The notes beneath the pieces are model-generated. The model worked only from the letters and a program-made list of their open reading frames with translations. It made no database searches and was not told the DNA's origin. Of a stretch of DNA of 64,000 bases, positions 21,880 through 31,226 are shown in pieces. The translations under genes were made by a program, and so were the position numbers. The DNA is from Candidatus Moraniibacteriota bacterium. Its GTDB lineage: Bacteria; Patescibacteriota; Minisyncoccia; Moranbacterales; UBA1568. Numbering within the stretch: position 1 is the first letter of the stretch; the number at the start of each line of letters is the position of its first letter. The DNA lies in the NCBI GenBank assembly GCA_013334245.1, contig JAAXXZ010000004.1:127-64126 (forward strand). Direction: 5' to 3'.

Positions 21880-21955
21880 GGGCCGTTAGCTCAGTTGGTT
21901 AGAGCGCCGCATTTGCAATGCGGAGGTCGCCGGTTCGAATCCGGCACGGTCCACC
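21880..21955 (+). tRNA. tRNA-Ala (TGC)
   Basis: Cloverleaf readable by eye: G3-U70 pair, anticodon loop TTTGCAA, T-loop GGTTCGAATCC, encoded CCA. Confidence 0.85.
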
Positions 21956-21979
21956 ACAATCCATCGGGAGTTGTGTCCC

Positions 21980-22040
21980 GGAGGTCGCCGGCCCGTCTCG
22001 CCGTTCGCGAACGGCAGGGTTCGAATCCGGCACGGTCCAC
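21980..22040 (+). other. Duplicated partial tRNA-Ala 3' segment (T-arm/acceptor copy with a 26-nt insertion)
   Basis: GGAGGTCGCCGG...GGTTCGAATCCGGCACGGTCCAC repeats the 3' part of the adjacent tRNA. Confidence 0.45.
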
Positions 22041-22052
22041 ATTGATCATCCG

Positions 22053-22695
22053 TATGGATATCGAAGAAATTCATTCCACAGTAGAGTGGGCGAAAGGCCT
22101 GACGGGCGGTGACGTTTCAGTTTCGAAGGAAAAGTATGGCGATCAGAGCTCGGTGCTCAGGCTGAATCTTTTGACGGATACCTTTTTCCTGAAAATCGGC
22201 AAGGGATTGGCGATGGAACGTGACCGGCTCGAATGGCTGGGGAAAAAAGTCTCCGTCCCGAGGGTGATTGGCTACACGGAAATCGACGGTAATGAGGCCT
22301 TGTTGCTGTCGGCAATCGAAGGAAAAAATCTCGCGGAACTGAAGAAGGAATGGCGAGCTGAAAAAGTGGTTGACGCTTTGGTTTTGTCGCTCAAGCGATT
22401 TCATTCTGTCGACGTGAAGGATTTCCCGTTCGGTGGCGCAGGAAAAGTGCTCGTGCACGGAGACGCCTGCCTTCCTAACTTCATTTTTAACGGAGATGAA
22501 CTTTCCGGTTATGTCGATGTGGGAGGTACGGCAGTCGATGACGTAGAGGCCGATTTTTCGGCGGCTATCTGGAGCTTGCACTATAATCTCGGTCCGGGAT
22601 ACGGGGCGATGTTCTTGAAACGGTATGGAATAGGGAATGTCGCGGACGAGTACGTGGAAATACTGAGGTTGCGTTACGAAGATAAGCAGGATTAG
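22053..22695 (+). CDS. Aminoglycoside 3'-phosphotransferase-like kinase (APH(3') family, short form)
   Basis: VHGDACLPNFIF...SGYVDVGGTAVDD closely matches the APH(3') catalytic/activation segment (HGDACLPN...SGFID.GRLGVAD). Confidence 0.65.
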
Positions 22696-23360: not shown

Positions 23361-23449
23361 CGGATGTGGTATACTCCCGGTAATGAATCGGACATCTCCG
23401 CCGTTTCGCGTCGTTGGTCGTCCGTCATATAAACCGTGTCCTGCGGACT

Positions 23450-26110
23450 ATGTTGTTTCTCGTCTTCGTGGTCGGTCTCATCGGATTCAAGGTTCTTTTG
23501 TCGAGAGTGCAGGTGCTTGAGCGTAAGGTGACGGAATTGGAACATTCGGCTCCGATAGGGAGTCGGGAGACGGCGCGTCCCGTTCCCGTGCAATCGGTTC
23601 CGAATGCTATGCCAGCGTCATCCGGGGGCGCGCCGGTGACACTTGCACGGACCGCGGCACAAGAAACGATCGCACCGGCAGCTTCGATGTCGCAACCGAA
23701 AAAGTCGGAACCCGTTTCGATTCCCGAATCGGCAGGTTTCATGAAGACGACGTTGAACCGAATGGAGTCCGGCTCTTCCGAAAAGGGAACTCTCGAATCG
23801 AATATCGGAGGAAAACTTTTCACAGGCATCGGAGCCATCGCGGTCCTATTGGGAGTCGGATTCTTTTTCCGTTACGCGATCGAGGTCGGAATCATAACTG
23901 AGCCGGTCCGCGTCCTGCTCGGTATCCTTGCCGGCGTGGCGCTTCTCGTCGTCGGTCAGGTGCTGATGGGGAAATATGCCCGCTACTCCCAGATCTTGAC
24001 CGGCACGGGAATCGGCATGCTCTATCTTTCGCTTTACTTCGGATACGCGTCGTACGACCTCCTGTCTCAGGCGTTCGCGTTCGTACTCATGATCCTCGTG
24101 ACGGTCGTCGGTATCGCCCTTGCGCTCCGTCACGACTCGGTCTATCTCGCCCTCTTCGCGCAGATAGGCGGATTCCTTACCCCGTTGCTCGTGTCGGACG
24201 GTGGAAGCGCGACGCATCAGCTGTTCCTCTATATGCTGCTGCTTGACGCCGGCATGGTCGTGGTTGCCTGGAAGAAGCTGTGGATGCCGCTCACGTTGGT
24301 GAGTTTCATCGGAACGGCGCTTTTGTACTCCATGTGGTTTTCCAATTCTTTCGGTCCTTCACAAGCGGGGGTCGCTTCCATATACGCGTCGTTGTTCTTC
24401 ATTTTCTTCTTCGCGGTATCCGTGCTCCGTCAGACGCGGCATCACGAGCCTTCGGAAGCCAAGGAGGCGATACTCGTGCTTTTAAACGCGGGATATTTCC
24501 TTTTCATCGGTCTGGCGATACTCGAGCAGGTCCGCCCGGAACTCCGCGGAACATTCGCGTTCATCTTCGCCGCGTTGCACGGAATCGCCGCCTTCATGTT
24601 CCGCGAATACGGTGAGCGATTCAGGATGTTCACCAAGTTTCTCGCAAGCATCTCGGTCGTCACGTTGGCCATCGGTATCCCGATCCAGTTCGATCGGATG
24701 TACGTGACCATCGGTTGGGCGGCCCAGGGCGCCGTGCTGGCGTATCTCGGTTTCGCTCTCCGTTCGCGTCTCTTGCGCTCGTTCTCGCTGATCGCGTTCC
24801 TTCTGGTCTTCCTTCGTCTCCTTTCCGTCGATACGTTCGGCATCGCGGCCTCGGAGCCGTGGCTGAACGGCCGGATGATCAGCCTCCTGTTTTCCGTGAT
24901 TGCCTACGGCGTGGCGATATTCTTTTTCCATAAAGGGAAGGGAGACGCTTCTCCCGAGGAGTCGTCGTCGGTTTCCTTCCTGCTTCTCACCGGCCTTTTC
25001 ATGACTTTCGTTACCGGAAGCGCGCAGTCGTTCGGATATCATCCCGCCTGGGTGACGATCCTGTTCTGGTCGGTACTCGCGTTCGGTTCGGCGGTCGTTT
25101 CCTTCGGATTGAAGAACCGCGTCGGTCGCGTCTTCTCGCTTGTCCTGACCATGGCAATCCTCCTCGGGACGGTTTCATGGAGCGGACTTTTGTCGGCTTC
25201 GGTATCGGTCGGATTTCCGGGAAGCAGGATATTGGCGGCCGCGTTCGGACTGATCGTGATGGCGGGCATATTCTTCCTGTATCGTACTTCCGAAGGGGAG
25301 GATCGTCCGGAGGAACGGGACATAGCGACGACATTGCTGCTTCTTGAGGCATATCTGCTTACTGTATGGGTCGGGAGCGCCGAAATCGACCGTGTCGGTC
25401 CGTCATTCTGGATTCCCTTGTTCGCGGCCGCCGCATCGACGTTCGCCGGATGGATCTCATCGCGGTTCCGCGAATCGGCCGTACTCGGGGTGAACTATGC
25501 CGGTCTCATGATTTCGGGAATCGCGGCGATATTCATGAATCACGACGCCGCGGTCGCTTTTTCCGGCATGCCTATCCTCAATGCCCGAGTTCTCGTATTT
25601 CTCGTGGTGATCTTGTCCATGCTCCTGTTCCGGCAACTGTTGCGGCGGGAAGGAAAGAATACGCGGGTGTGGTCGGTTCCCGCCCGGAAGGCGCTTTCCT
25701 TCTTCCTGCACGCGCTCGGTTTTTTCCTCATGAATGTCGAGATATACGATGCCTTGTCTCCGACGTTGAGGCCGGTTTCCGGAGCTAAAACCGATTCGGT
25801 TCGACACGCGCAAAGCATGCGCAACGCGGCCCTGTCCGTGGCGTGGTCCGCGTACGCTATCGCGACCCTCGCATACGGGATCGTCAGGAAAAGCTCCGCA
25901 CATCGGCTGGCGGCAATGTTCCTGTTCGGTGCCGCGATATTGAAGGTATTTCTCTATGATGCGGCCGGTCTGGATACGTTCTACCGCTTCGTATCCTATT
26001 TTTCGCTCGGCGTCCTCTTGCTGCTTGCCGGGTATGCCTATAACCGGTACCGGGACCGAATCTCCGAATTTGTCCGCGATACCGGTAGTAGCGACGTGCT
26101 TAAAGGCTGA
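23450..26110 (+). CDS. Large polytopic membrane protein (DUF2339-like)
   Basis: More than 20 predicted TM segments after a coiled-coil N-terminal region. Confidence 0.5.
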   Translation: MLFLVFVVGLIGFKVLLSRVQVLERKVTELEHSAPIGSRETARPVPVQSVPNAMPASSGGAPVTLARTAAQETIAPAASMSQPKKSEPVSIPESAGFMKTTLNRMESGSSEKGTLESNIGGKLFTGIGAIAVLLGVGFFFRYAIEVGIITEPVRVLLGILAGVALLVVGQVLMGKYARYSQILTGTGIGMLYLSLYFGYASYDLLSQAFAFVLMILVTVVGIALALRHDSVYLALFAQIGGFLTPLLVSDGGSATHQLFLYMLLLDAGMVVVAWKKLWMPLTLVSFIGTALLYSMWFSNSFGPSQAGVASIYASLFFIFFFAVSVLRQTRHHEPSEAKEAILVLLNAGYFLFIGLAILEQVRPELRGTFAFIFAALHGIAAFMFREYGERFRMFTKFLASISVVTLAIGIPIQFDRMYVTIGWAAQGAVLAYLGFALRSRLLRSFSLIAFLLVFLRLLSVDTFGIAASEPWLNGRMISLLFSVIAYGVAIFFFHKGKGDASPEESSSVSFLLLTGLFMTFVTGSAQSFGYHPAWVTILFWSVLAFGSAVVSFGLKNRVGRVFSLVLTMAILLGTVSWSGLLSASVSVGFPGSRILAAAFGLIVMAGIFFLYRTSEGEDRPEERDIATTLLLLEAYLLTVWVGSAEIDRVGPSFWIPLFAAAASTFAGWISSRFRESAVLGVNYAGLMISGIAAIFMNHDAAVAFSGMPILNARVLVFLVVILSMLLFRQLLRREGKNTRVWSVPARKALSFFLHALGFFLMNVEIYDALSPTLRPVSGAKTDSVRHAQSMRNAALSVAWSAYAIATLAYGIVRKSSAHRLAAMFLFGAAILKVFLYDAAGLDTFYRFVSYFSLGVLLLLAGYAYNRYRDRISEFVRDTGSSDVLKG

Positions 26111-26200: not shown

Positions 26201-26277
26201 GGGCGATTAGCTCAGTTGGTTAGAGCGCGTCACTGATAATGACGAGGTCCCAAGTTCGAATCTTGGATCGCCCACAC
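26201..26277 (+). tRNA. tRNA-Ile (GAT)
   Basis: Anticodon arm CGTCA-CTGATAA-TGACG and the canonical D and T arms. Confidence 0.85.
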
Positions 26278-26376
26278 TGCCGCCGACAGGCGGTAAGCAC
26301 CAAGCACCAAATAACAAGGACCAAAAGATCAGTCTATGTTTGGTATTTGGAGTTTGGAACGCGAAAGCGTTAGATA

Positions 26377-26448
26377 GCGGGGTAGAGCAGTCTGGCAGCT
26401 CGTCTGGCTCATAACCAGGAGGTCGTGGGTTCGAATCCCACCCCCGCA
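26377..26448 (+). tRNA. tRNA with CAT anticodon (elongator Met or Ile2)
   Basis: GCGGGGT acceptor, anticodon loop CTCATAA, G1-C72 pair so not an initiator. Confidence 0.8.
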
Positions 26449-26692
26449 ACAAGGAATGAAATGACGCAGTGAAGGGGAGCGAGTGAACTGCTTCACTCGC
26501 GAGTGGGATGAGAACGGATTTCCCCTGAAAGGGAAATCAGTGGCTCGAAGAGGAATCCCACCCCCGCAACAAGGAATGAAATGACGCAGTGAAGGGGAGC
26601 GAGTGAACTGCTTCACTCGCGAGTGGGATGAGAACGGATTTCCCCTGAAAGGGAAATCAGTGGCTCGAAGAGGAATCCTACCCCCGCAACCA
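26449..26692. repeat. Two perfect 122-bp tandem units, each ending in a copy of the tRNA-CAT 3' end, plus a third degenerate 3'-end copy
   Basis: 26461-26520 is identical to 26581-26640; each unit has two 8-bp hairpins (CGAGTGAA/TTCACTCG and GATTTCCC/GGGAAATC) and ends GAATCCCACCCCCGCAAC. Confidence 0.75.
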
Positions 26693-26815
26693 CGAAAAAC
26701 ATGCTATGCATGTCTCGTGGCACGGCGGAATCGTCAAGATGTTTTGTAGCGGAAATCTTTTTGAATTTCGTGGCCACGTGGCGAGCGAAACGAGTTTTGC
26801 GTGGCAAAAGACGAT

Positions 26816-27093
26816 ATGGCGTATTTTGTCTACGTTCTTGAGAGCTATGGTGACGGAAGTCTGTATATCGGATATACGGAGAACCTGAAGCGGCGATATG
26901 CCGAGCATCTTTCCGGGAAAGGAGGAAGACGACCCGAAGGAAGGACGATTGGAAGTTGATATATTTTGAAGGTTATTCCGATAAGTCCGATGCTCTCGGA
27001 AGGGAGAAATTTCTCAAGAGCGGTTCCGGAAGAAGATACCTGAAGAAACAATTGTCCCATTTTTTTTACGCTGGGAGATCGAAATCCCGATAA
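26816..27093 (+). pseudogene. GIY-YIG (YhbQ-like) nuclease gene disrupted by a frameshift near 26935
   Basis: N-terminal half YVLESYGDGSLYIGYTENLKRRYAEHLSGKGGRRP is in one frame; C-terminal half WKLIYFEGYSDKSDALGREKFLK is in another. Confidence 0.4.
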
Positions 27094-31058: not shown

Positions 31059-31132
31059 GGATCGGTAGCTCAGTTGGTTAGAGCGCCGCCCTGTCACGGC
31101 GGAGGTCGCGAGTTCGAGTCTCGTCCGGTCCG
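31059..31132 (+). tRNA. tRNA-Asp (GTC)
   Basis: Anticodon arm CCGCC-CTGTCAC-GGCGG. Confidence 0.85.
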
Positions 31133-31226
31133 CAGAAAAAACAGCCCCTACGCGGGCTGTTTTCGTTTCTGATCGGATCCGGCATGGTATAATCCGGTCG
31201 TAATAACCGGTGCAATACCAGGTCAT

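Follow-up and report, generated by a model that had tools for sequence, protein, structure and literature searches.

The tRNA-linked repeats (TLRs, represented in Rfam by RtT) of E. coli were reportedly dealt with by Egan and Landy in 1978 and by Rudd in 1999. First described in 1978 and listed without a function as a class, these repeats are recognised by 18–19 bp at their 3' end that are identical to those of the upstream tRNA or 5S gene, and E. coli K-12 contains 22 of them at 10 loci, with one to five per locus (PMC8144298). In the rrn operons, TLRs undergo transcription and processing, and in vitro they bind both Hfq and CsrA; the repeat has been proposed to be an RNase processing signal (PMC8144298). 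Between Salmonella strains, the RtT array represents a VNTR (PMC2658671).

In the E. coli sequences used here for comparison, the tyrT region has the order tyrT, one RtT copy, tyrV and three RtT copies, with a period of 178 bp. The copies following tyrT and tyrV score 133–137 bits with the Rfam RtT model, and the 3' end of each is the 3' end of tRNA-Tyr. The lysT operon contains five RtT copies of 47–60 bits, each ending as the 3' end of tRNA-Lys, so that the E. coli controls span 47–137 bits. The rttR RNA is annotated as stopping exactly at the tRNA-like CCA end of the repeat, and the rrnB trailer carries a 5S version of it; in metZWV, the RtT model had no match.

Herein, we consider a locus from a 64-kb window (the whole stretch of DNA that was analysed, 64,000 nucleotides) of a genome of Moranbacteria, which belong to the candidate phyla radiation (CPR). 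It is likely, in our opinion, that the initiator-tRNA operon of this genome carries two divergent TLRs, for which we also propose a mechanism. A search of the literature on CPR and tRNA-like tandem elements found nothing relevant.

The array behind the initiator tRNA

The array and its surroundings comprise the following elements:

26201–26275, + strand: tRNA-Ile(GAT), first in the tRNA cluster (ARAGORN; Rfam tRNA model, 74.5 bits)
26376–26450, + strand: initiator tRNA-Met(CAT) (ARAGORN and Rfam)
26451–26570, + strand: candidate TLR unit 1, 120 nt (R1 covariance model, 113.8 bits; Rfam RtT, 22.2 bits, E = 0.03)
26571–26690, + strand: candidate TLR unit 2 (R1, 109.9 bits; Rfam RtT, 21.2 bits, E = 0.05)
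26691–26725, + strand: trailer CACGAAAAACATGCTATGCATGTCTCGTGGCACGG after the array, with a small hairpin read from the sequence
26801–27093, + strand: frameshifted GIY-YIG (YhbQ-like) pseudogene, ORFs 26801–26959 and 26956–27093, outside the repeat

The tRNA-Met(CAT) gene starts 100 nt after tRNA-Ile(GAT). It is of the initiator type, having a 1:72 mismatch (A1×A72 in the Rfam alignment), and is identical to E. coli metZ at 64 of 75 positions. The 3' 18 nt of this tRNA (26433–26450, spanning T-loop G57 to C74) are the first occurrence of the repeated end. An earlier note on this DNA had described two perfect copies and a third, degenerate one, and this is what we found: the 18-mer GAATCCCACCCCCGCAAC lies at 26433 and 26553, and a third copy, at 26673, differs by a single mismatch (C>T at 26679). 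There is no further site in the 64-kb window, for which 0.09 matches were expected by chance. The spacing, given in that note as 122 bp, was measured as 120 bp both directly and by TRF (2.2 copies, 99% matches).

The 102 nt separating the copies of the 18-mer occur exactly twice and are identical in both units. Unit 2 departs from unit 1 solely in the C>T at 26679, by which a G-C pair of helix P2 becomes G·U. Unit 1 begins on the same strand with the base directly after tRNA-Met (26451), leaving zero gap, and the identity of the unit ends to the 3' end of tRNA-Met is 18/18 in unit 1 and 17/18 in unit 2. Each unit consists of an RNA module of about 97 nt and a 23-nt spacer. The number of units in the window, two, is that of the assembly.

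At gathering thresholds, Rfam recovered six tRNAs in the window and nothing else. Neither ARAGORN nor the Rfam tRNA model made a call on either unit, which therefore lack a recognisable cloverleaf; the units keep no more of the tRNA than its T-stem and, of the acceptor stem, 4 bp. Prediction of canonical terminators and strong promoters in the window gave none. The trailer has the layout CACGAAAAA-CATGC-TAT-GCATG-TCTCGTGGCACG. It is kept 3' of the last unit in L005, L006, L002 and L012 with a varying inner stem (GCGC..GCGC, TGCGC..GCGTA), and may be another small structured element.

Species-representative genomes were scanned for two tRNA-end copies 89–119 nt apart, which yielded eight MAGs labelled Moranbacteria or, in some cases, “Bdellovibrionales”. 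A metagenome scan with the pattern GTGGGATGAGAA...GAATCCCACCCCC returned 14 contigs. Overall, at least 16 other assemblies of the Moranbacteria type (eight GTDB MAGs and eight metagenome contigs) contain the unit 3' of the orthologous initiator tRNA, the related loci having been collected by patterns that require the repeat. Thus, the search in related genomes that the earlier note had called for placed the unit at the orthologous initiator-tRNA locus. That note had also considered a common interspersed repeat unrelated to tRNA sites; with the R1 model, no copy away from a tRNA was found. The gene order of the fMet-type loci is constant (tRNA-Ile, initiator tRNA, one or more units, sometimes GIY-YIG, then an ABC transporter), with the Ile–fMet tRNA pair upstream of the repeats in related loci too, and their flanking DNA is 68–98% identical to the window. 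Rho-independent terminators lie 3' of the arrays in L001, L004, L006, L007, L008 and L009. An exact look-up of the neighbouring ABC transporter returned no record.

The fMet-type loci contain from one to four or more copies. Locus L005, 93–98% identical to the window, has one unit compared to the window's two, and, judged by these assemblies, the copy number is polymorphic. Some arrays, for example L002, L007 and L014, mix unit subtypes with different stems, and for those arrays assembly duplication is impossible. In the window, the second copy might be an assembly artefact of one real unit, given that the units were counted as 100% identical, that 120 bp is about a short-read length and that the closest relative, L005, has a single unit. 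However, independent assemblies also contain multi-unit arrays, including ones with non-identical neighbours (L007, L009, L002 and L014), and the spacers of the two window units differ from that of L005 in the same four places, as expected of a real recent duplication. We consider such an artefact improbable; if true, it would alter the copy number alone and not the identity of the element.

The earlier note was right about a frameshifted GIY-YIG gene downstream: a +1 frameshift lies near 26925, and the repaired protein matches PF01541 (6.7e-19). L005, an independent assembly, has this very frameshift, which is therefore probably real. L006 carries an intact 80-aa copy, while most related loci have none. 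We considered the GIY-YIG protein as the agent of duplication and rejected it because its gene is absent at most unit-bearing loci.

Another difference between these loci concerns an 898-aa DUF2339 membrane-protein gene (23414–26110), which is present in the window, L003 and L014. L005, L016 and L022 lack it, although they are collinear in other respects, and in their alignment ~23338 is followed directly by ~26118. This amounts to a 2.8-kb indel adjoining the tRNA cluster.

Fold of the unit and its variation

Unit 1 can be divided as follows:

26451–26473, + strand: spacer
26474–77, + strand: 5' strand of helix P1, GGGG
26479–26487 with 26492–26500, + strand: hairpin HP1, a perfect 9-bp stem
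26503–09, + strand: 5' strand of helix P2, GTGGGAT
26510–15, + strand: GA-rich motif GAGAAC
26517–24 with 26531–38, + strand: hairpin HP2, a perfect 8-bp stem
26544–46 with 26550–52, + strand: hairpin HP3, 3 bp, CTC/GAG
26553–70, + strand: tRNA-identical 18-mer, consisting of G-A, the P2 3' strand ATCCCAC, the P1 3' strand CCCC and the tail GCAAC

In the predicted fold, GTGGGAT (26503–09) and GGGG (26474–77) form a long-range helix with the tRNA-derived ATCCCACCCCC (26555–65), and the energy of a single unit is −44.8 kcal/mol (z = −3.6). Where the earlier note had reported two perfect 8-bp hairpins, the length holds for HP2; HP1 has 9 bp, and there is a third hairpin of 3 bp.

From an alignment of 16 distinct fMet-type units, RNAalifold derived five helices. 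Standard pairing occupies 98.7% of the helix cells, and double-sided changes affect 15 of the 29 pairs: seven of nine in HP1, six of six in HP2 and two of three in HP3, for which the variants CCC/GGG, CTC/GAG and CCT/AGG exist. None of 500 shuffles was as good, and slid partners left 2–4 such pairs. There are seven G·U cells and no A·C cells, which favours folding of the tRNA-sense strand. P1 (GGGG/CCCC) and P2 (GTGGGAT/ATCCCAC) are invariant in this alignment because one of their strands is the tRNA end, and support for their pairing comes only from the comparison across tRNA types. The substitutions found in terminal copies (C>T at 26679 in the window, CCCC>CCCT in L006) give G·U with the unit's own 5' strand. 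The motif GGATGAGAA is invariant in 16/16 units. Such a pattern of sequence variation indicates that the structure of the unit is under selection.

The fold accounts for the whole 18-mer: G57-A58 stand opposite the G-A of GAGAA, seven bases belong to P2, four to P1 and five to the tail. As we model it, the 5' strand and the tRNA-derived 3' end rebuild a coaxial T-stem/acceptor-stem helix and thus a mimic of this part of the tRNA. In the same model, a GA-rich internal loop together with two hairpins takes the place of the T-loop, and at the position of the D and anticodon arms there is a third hairpin. The G-A of GAGAA and G57-A58 could form a tandem G·A motif, as has been reported for RtT.

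The GAUGAGAA region was also compared by eye with the hammerhead and kink-turn consensus, and neither fits.

In several arrays, HP3 and the tRNA-like end of the last unit are separated by one more hairpin, GAGAGATTCCC-TGGGA-GGGAATTTCTC; an additional hairpin stands at the corresponding position in the tyrT and rrnB TLRs of E. coli. The GAGAGATTCCC-TGGGA-GGGAATTTCTC hairpin is found in these last units:

L002, 446–564
L012, 900–1018
L022, 6715–6833
L014, 5671–5772

The unit could also be read as encoding a small basic peptide like Tpr of E. coli, from the ATG of the conserved GGATGAGAAG. The protamine-like tpr CDS of E. coli K-12 (L023 1288–1377) begins exactly at the GGATGAGAAG ATG and runs to a TGA just before the tRNA-like end, and the ATG is invariant in all aligned units. 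However, the ORF ends after six codons in 5/16 units, the window's included, indels shift the frame between units, and the variation is compensatory in stems and not codon-wise. With an ORF lacking conservation among the 16 units, we rejected Tpr-like coding and give it practically no credence. Keeping in mind that GGATGAGAAG is conserved in the TLRs of both phyla without a conserved ORF, the comparison of sequences suggests that tpr may be the annotation of an RNA motif.

At classical T-loop attB sites of tRNA-targeting integrases, the identity block extends from the T-loop to the tRNA 3' end, and the attL/attR of prophages, ICEs and CIMEs are, like the repeats described here, direct copies of this tRNA segment. 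The earlier note had preferred to read the array as the scar of repeated site-specific integration and excision at a tRNA attachment site. On this reading, the 18-mers would be attL/attR cores and the 102 nt the remnant of the ends of the element. It is consistent with such a scar that the repeated block starts in the T-loop and ends at the tRNA 3' end, and that the outermost copy has degenerated slightly, which is common among displaced attR copies. However, attL and attR bracket kilobases including a recombinase, whereas merely 102 nt of conserved structured sequence without a recombinase lie between the repeats here. Pfam on the ORFs between 22.0 and 32.2 kb identified APH, endonuclease III, DUF2339, GIY-YIG, ABC transporter, DUF4215, sortase and GNAT proteins and no recombinase, the earlier note having likewise seen no integrase; there is none within about 5 kb of the array, and none adjoins any locus examined. 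In addition, the 102 nt are conserved at the orthologous site with 15 pairs covarying across many genomes, and the 5' strand of the unit is complementary to the core, for which att arms have no reason. The same layout forms a chromosomal, non-integrative repeat class in E. coli, and no phage or viral contig with the module was found. Taken together, these observations make an integration scar very improbable.

The viral contigs gave no match to hairpin 2. A single match to the core pattern lay inside a coding region with no tRNA near and was dismissed as a chance match.

Units behind other tRNAs

Modules with the GGATGAGAA core also follow Asp, Asn, Ser(TGA, GGA, GCT) and Gln tRNAs. The 3' end of each module is that of its own tRNA, and its 5' strand is matched to it. 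The R1 covariance model, built from fMet-type units, detected further units after tRNA-Asp in L006 and L013, and the strands of the Asp type covary (GGTTCGG/CCGATCC compared to GGTCCGG/CCGGTCC). The metagenome hits included a tRNA-Asn unit (L020) and tRNA-Ser(TGA/GGA) units (L010, L015, L017, L019 and L021). Short units in L017 and L019, located 3' of Ser(GGA), Ser(GCT) and Gln tRNAs, have the same AT-GAGAAGTTTAT insert within a copy of the T-arm, together with host-matched strands (GTGGG/CCCAC, GAGAG/CTCTC and CAGG/CCTGG). A generic scan of 84 tRNAs in the compared sequences found downstream repeats to be common.

The tRNA-Asp of the window (31059–31133) has a terminator directly 3' and no unit. 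An Asp-fitted unit is present in L006 (5883–6066) and in L013 (3000–3262), the latter with one unit and a truncated second, and tRNA-Asp of L018 is followed by the 5' spacer of the unit only (769–870). As far as these sequences go, the tRNA-Asp site is subject to a presence/absence polymorphism of repeats.

The window contains one more repeat linked to a tRNA:

21957–22040, + strand: a second, different tRNA-linked repeat, after tRNA-Ala(TGC) (21880–21956)

It is a 33-nt copy of tRNA positions 21922–21954 (variable region, T-arm and 3' end), split between T-stem G53 and T54 by a 28-nt hairpin (21992–22019). L005 and L016 have two Ala-type units, where the inserted hairpin shows compensatory variants and one L016 unit is uninterrupted. 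A listed 266-aa ORF (21895–22695) starts inside tRNA-Ala and spans the Ala-linked repeat; the true start of this APH-family gene (PF01636) is most likely near 22050.

The distribution over different tRNAs brings up a selfish origin, namely a non-autonomous DNA-level mini-element that targets the T-loop/3' end of tRNAs, uses its hairpins, acting as ssDNA or RNA, for its own mobility, and has no host function; the tRNA 3' end would be brought along or duplicated on insertion. The same core does stand behind at least seven tRNA species and in every case ends like its host tRNA, and its presence varies (at tRNA-Asp, none in the window, one in L006 and L013, the spacer in L018). Long-lived unit subtypes are mixed within arrays, and in L019 the duplicated flank extends past the tRNA end, resembling a target duplication. 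However, no transposase, integrase or reverse transcriptase lies beside any examined locus, every copy found is next to a tRNA, and the two scans of viral contigs gave nothing relevant. The persistence of units at the orthologous site under purifying selection on structure, as well as G·U without A·C pairs pointing to a sense RNA, also speak against a purely selfish element, which we hold to be unlikely.

Probable place among TLRs and proposed mechanism

At permissive thresholds, Rfam RtT (RF00391) was the top non-tRNA match to both units, although their scores fall short of the gathering threshold of 45 bits. The aligned blocks are the T-stem-like strand with AUGAGAA, and AAUCC with the T-stem 3' strand and the acceptor 3' end; in the consensus alignment, the window units have the outer helix expected of RtT. 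A unit of L014 scored 17.2 bits (E = 1), and the RtT model had no match to the Asp-type unit. In the reverse direction, R1 had no match among the E. coli TLRs. A search of the window by nhmmer with a rough E. coli TLR profile gave no match either, a weak negative because the profile alignment was contaminated with whole tRNAs. With a sub-threshold RtT match, none for the Asp type and a negative nhmmer search, the case for homology to the E. coli TLRs consists of two short motifs and the architecture, and convergence may also account for the likeness. The motifs, GGAUGAGAA and GGCCCGAAGGG, are common to the window units and the E. coli TLRs. As for the architecture, the tyrT and lysT TLRs have the layout seen here: the 5' strand of the T-stem, AU(GAGAA), hairpins, G[GA]CCCGNAGGG and the 3' 18–19 nt of the tRNA. 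In 237 kb of compared sequence, 25 of the 28 occurrences of G[GA]CCCGNAGGG are inside such repeats.

What defines a TLR at the level of sequence is found at these loci: a position 3' of a tRNA on the same strand, an 18–19-bp end and one to five units in variable number. As all the features that sequence can address are present and the RtT threshold is missed, we file the units as a divergent TLR variant. Like the E. coli TLRs (the 178-bp tyrT/tyrV repeat, rttR), they stand directly 3' of a tRNA on the same strand, and their last 18–19 nt are the tRNA 3' end, beginning in the T-loop. AUGAGAA comes straight after the T-stem strand, the G[GA]CCCGNAGGG hairpin precedes the 3' end, and there are one to five tandem copies, the number of which varies. 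The 5' strand pairs as GGGGAAGGAU/AUCCUUCCCC in the E. coli TLRs and as GGGG...GUGGGAU/AUCCCACCCCC here. Unlike the E. coli TLRs, those considered here belong to a CPR host and not to an enterobacterium, have an initiator tRNA as partner, have their 5' strand split into its two halves by an extra 9-bp hairpin, measure 120 bp instead of 178 bp, and have neither an encoded CCA nor a conserved tpr-like ORF.

Among other systems, rrA/rrB/rrF (the TLRs after 5S rRNA in rrnA, rrnB and rrnD) likewise repeat the 3' 18 nt of the upstream stable RNA. They contain GGCCCGGAGGG and flanking hairpins and are made by read-through transcription and subsequent processing. Unlike the units described here, they follow 5S rRNA and lie between two terminators. 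They also bind Hfq and CsrA in vitro through GGA motifs, of which the CPR units give no sign. With 3'ETS-leuZ, the units would share release from a tRNA operon transcript by processing (proposed here; PMC8144298 for 3'ETS-leuZ), whereas 3'ETS-leuZ base-pairs with sRNAs and has no copy of the tRNA 3' end. The tRNA-like domain of tmRNA and viral tRNA-like structures are comparable in having an acceptor/T-arm stack without an anticodon arm; the units differ from these by a replaced T-loop and an acceptor-like helix of only 4 bp. ARAGORN made no tmRNA call, and the Rfam Tymo tRNA-like model gave only a sub-threshold match (12 bits), on the tRNA itself.

Probably, by analogy with E. coli, the units are transcribed together with the tRNA, and processing of tRNA 3' ends releases them. 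The zero gap after the tRNA, the terminators after the arrays in relatives and the E. coli precedent are indirect indications of this. According to the mechanism that we propose, the units would be transcribed as the 3' trailer of the Ile–fMet tRNA precursor. Each of them would recreate the 3' processing determinant of the tRNA (acceptor/T-arm), and for this reason the same tRNA 3'-maturation enzymes would cut after each unit, giving rise to discrete tRNA-like RNAs. The array might expand and contract by unequal recombination or slippage through the homology of the 18-mer and the 120-bp unit, and recombination through this shared homology would maintain the identity between the internal ends and the tRNA. 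The earlier note had mentioned, as its alternative, a small structured RNA expressed in tandem, and this idea appears to fit both the covariation and the case of E. coli rttR, a processed RNA with a tRNA-like 3' end.

The window locus and its relatives represent a second, distant example set of TLRs. In CPR genomes, the stems covary strongly, which the near-identical E. coli copies cannot show, and the acceptor/T-arm-like helix follows the host tRNA in both of its strands. What selection preserves would be the mimic of the tRNA 3' processing determinant, the GA-rich loop and the small CCC-GAA-GGG hairpin, and with conserved parts defined in this way the question of function becomes testable with processing enzymes. 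Annotators of CPR genomes should not take short direct repeats of a tRNA 3' end for integration scars, and should note that Rfam RtT misses the CPR elements.

Finally, it is tempting to suppose, if only tentatively, that TLRs are an ancient or horizontally spreading class of tRNA-3'-end mimics extending from Gammaproteobacteria to CPR. A shared core of T-stem copy, AUGAGAA, hairpins and GGCCCGAAGGG may have been re-fitted on both strands to at least eight tRNAs. If this were true, either the class would have a conserved function tied to the recognition of tRNA 3' ends, for instance as a decoy or substrate for a 3'-end-processing, CCA-adding or tRNA-targeting enzyme, or it would be a new kind of RNA-structured element that copies itself behind stable-RNA genes.
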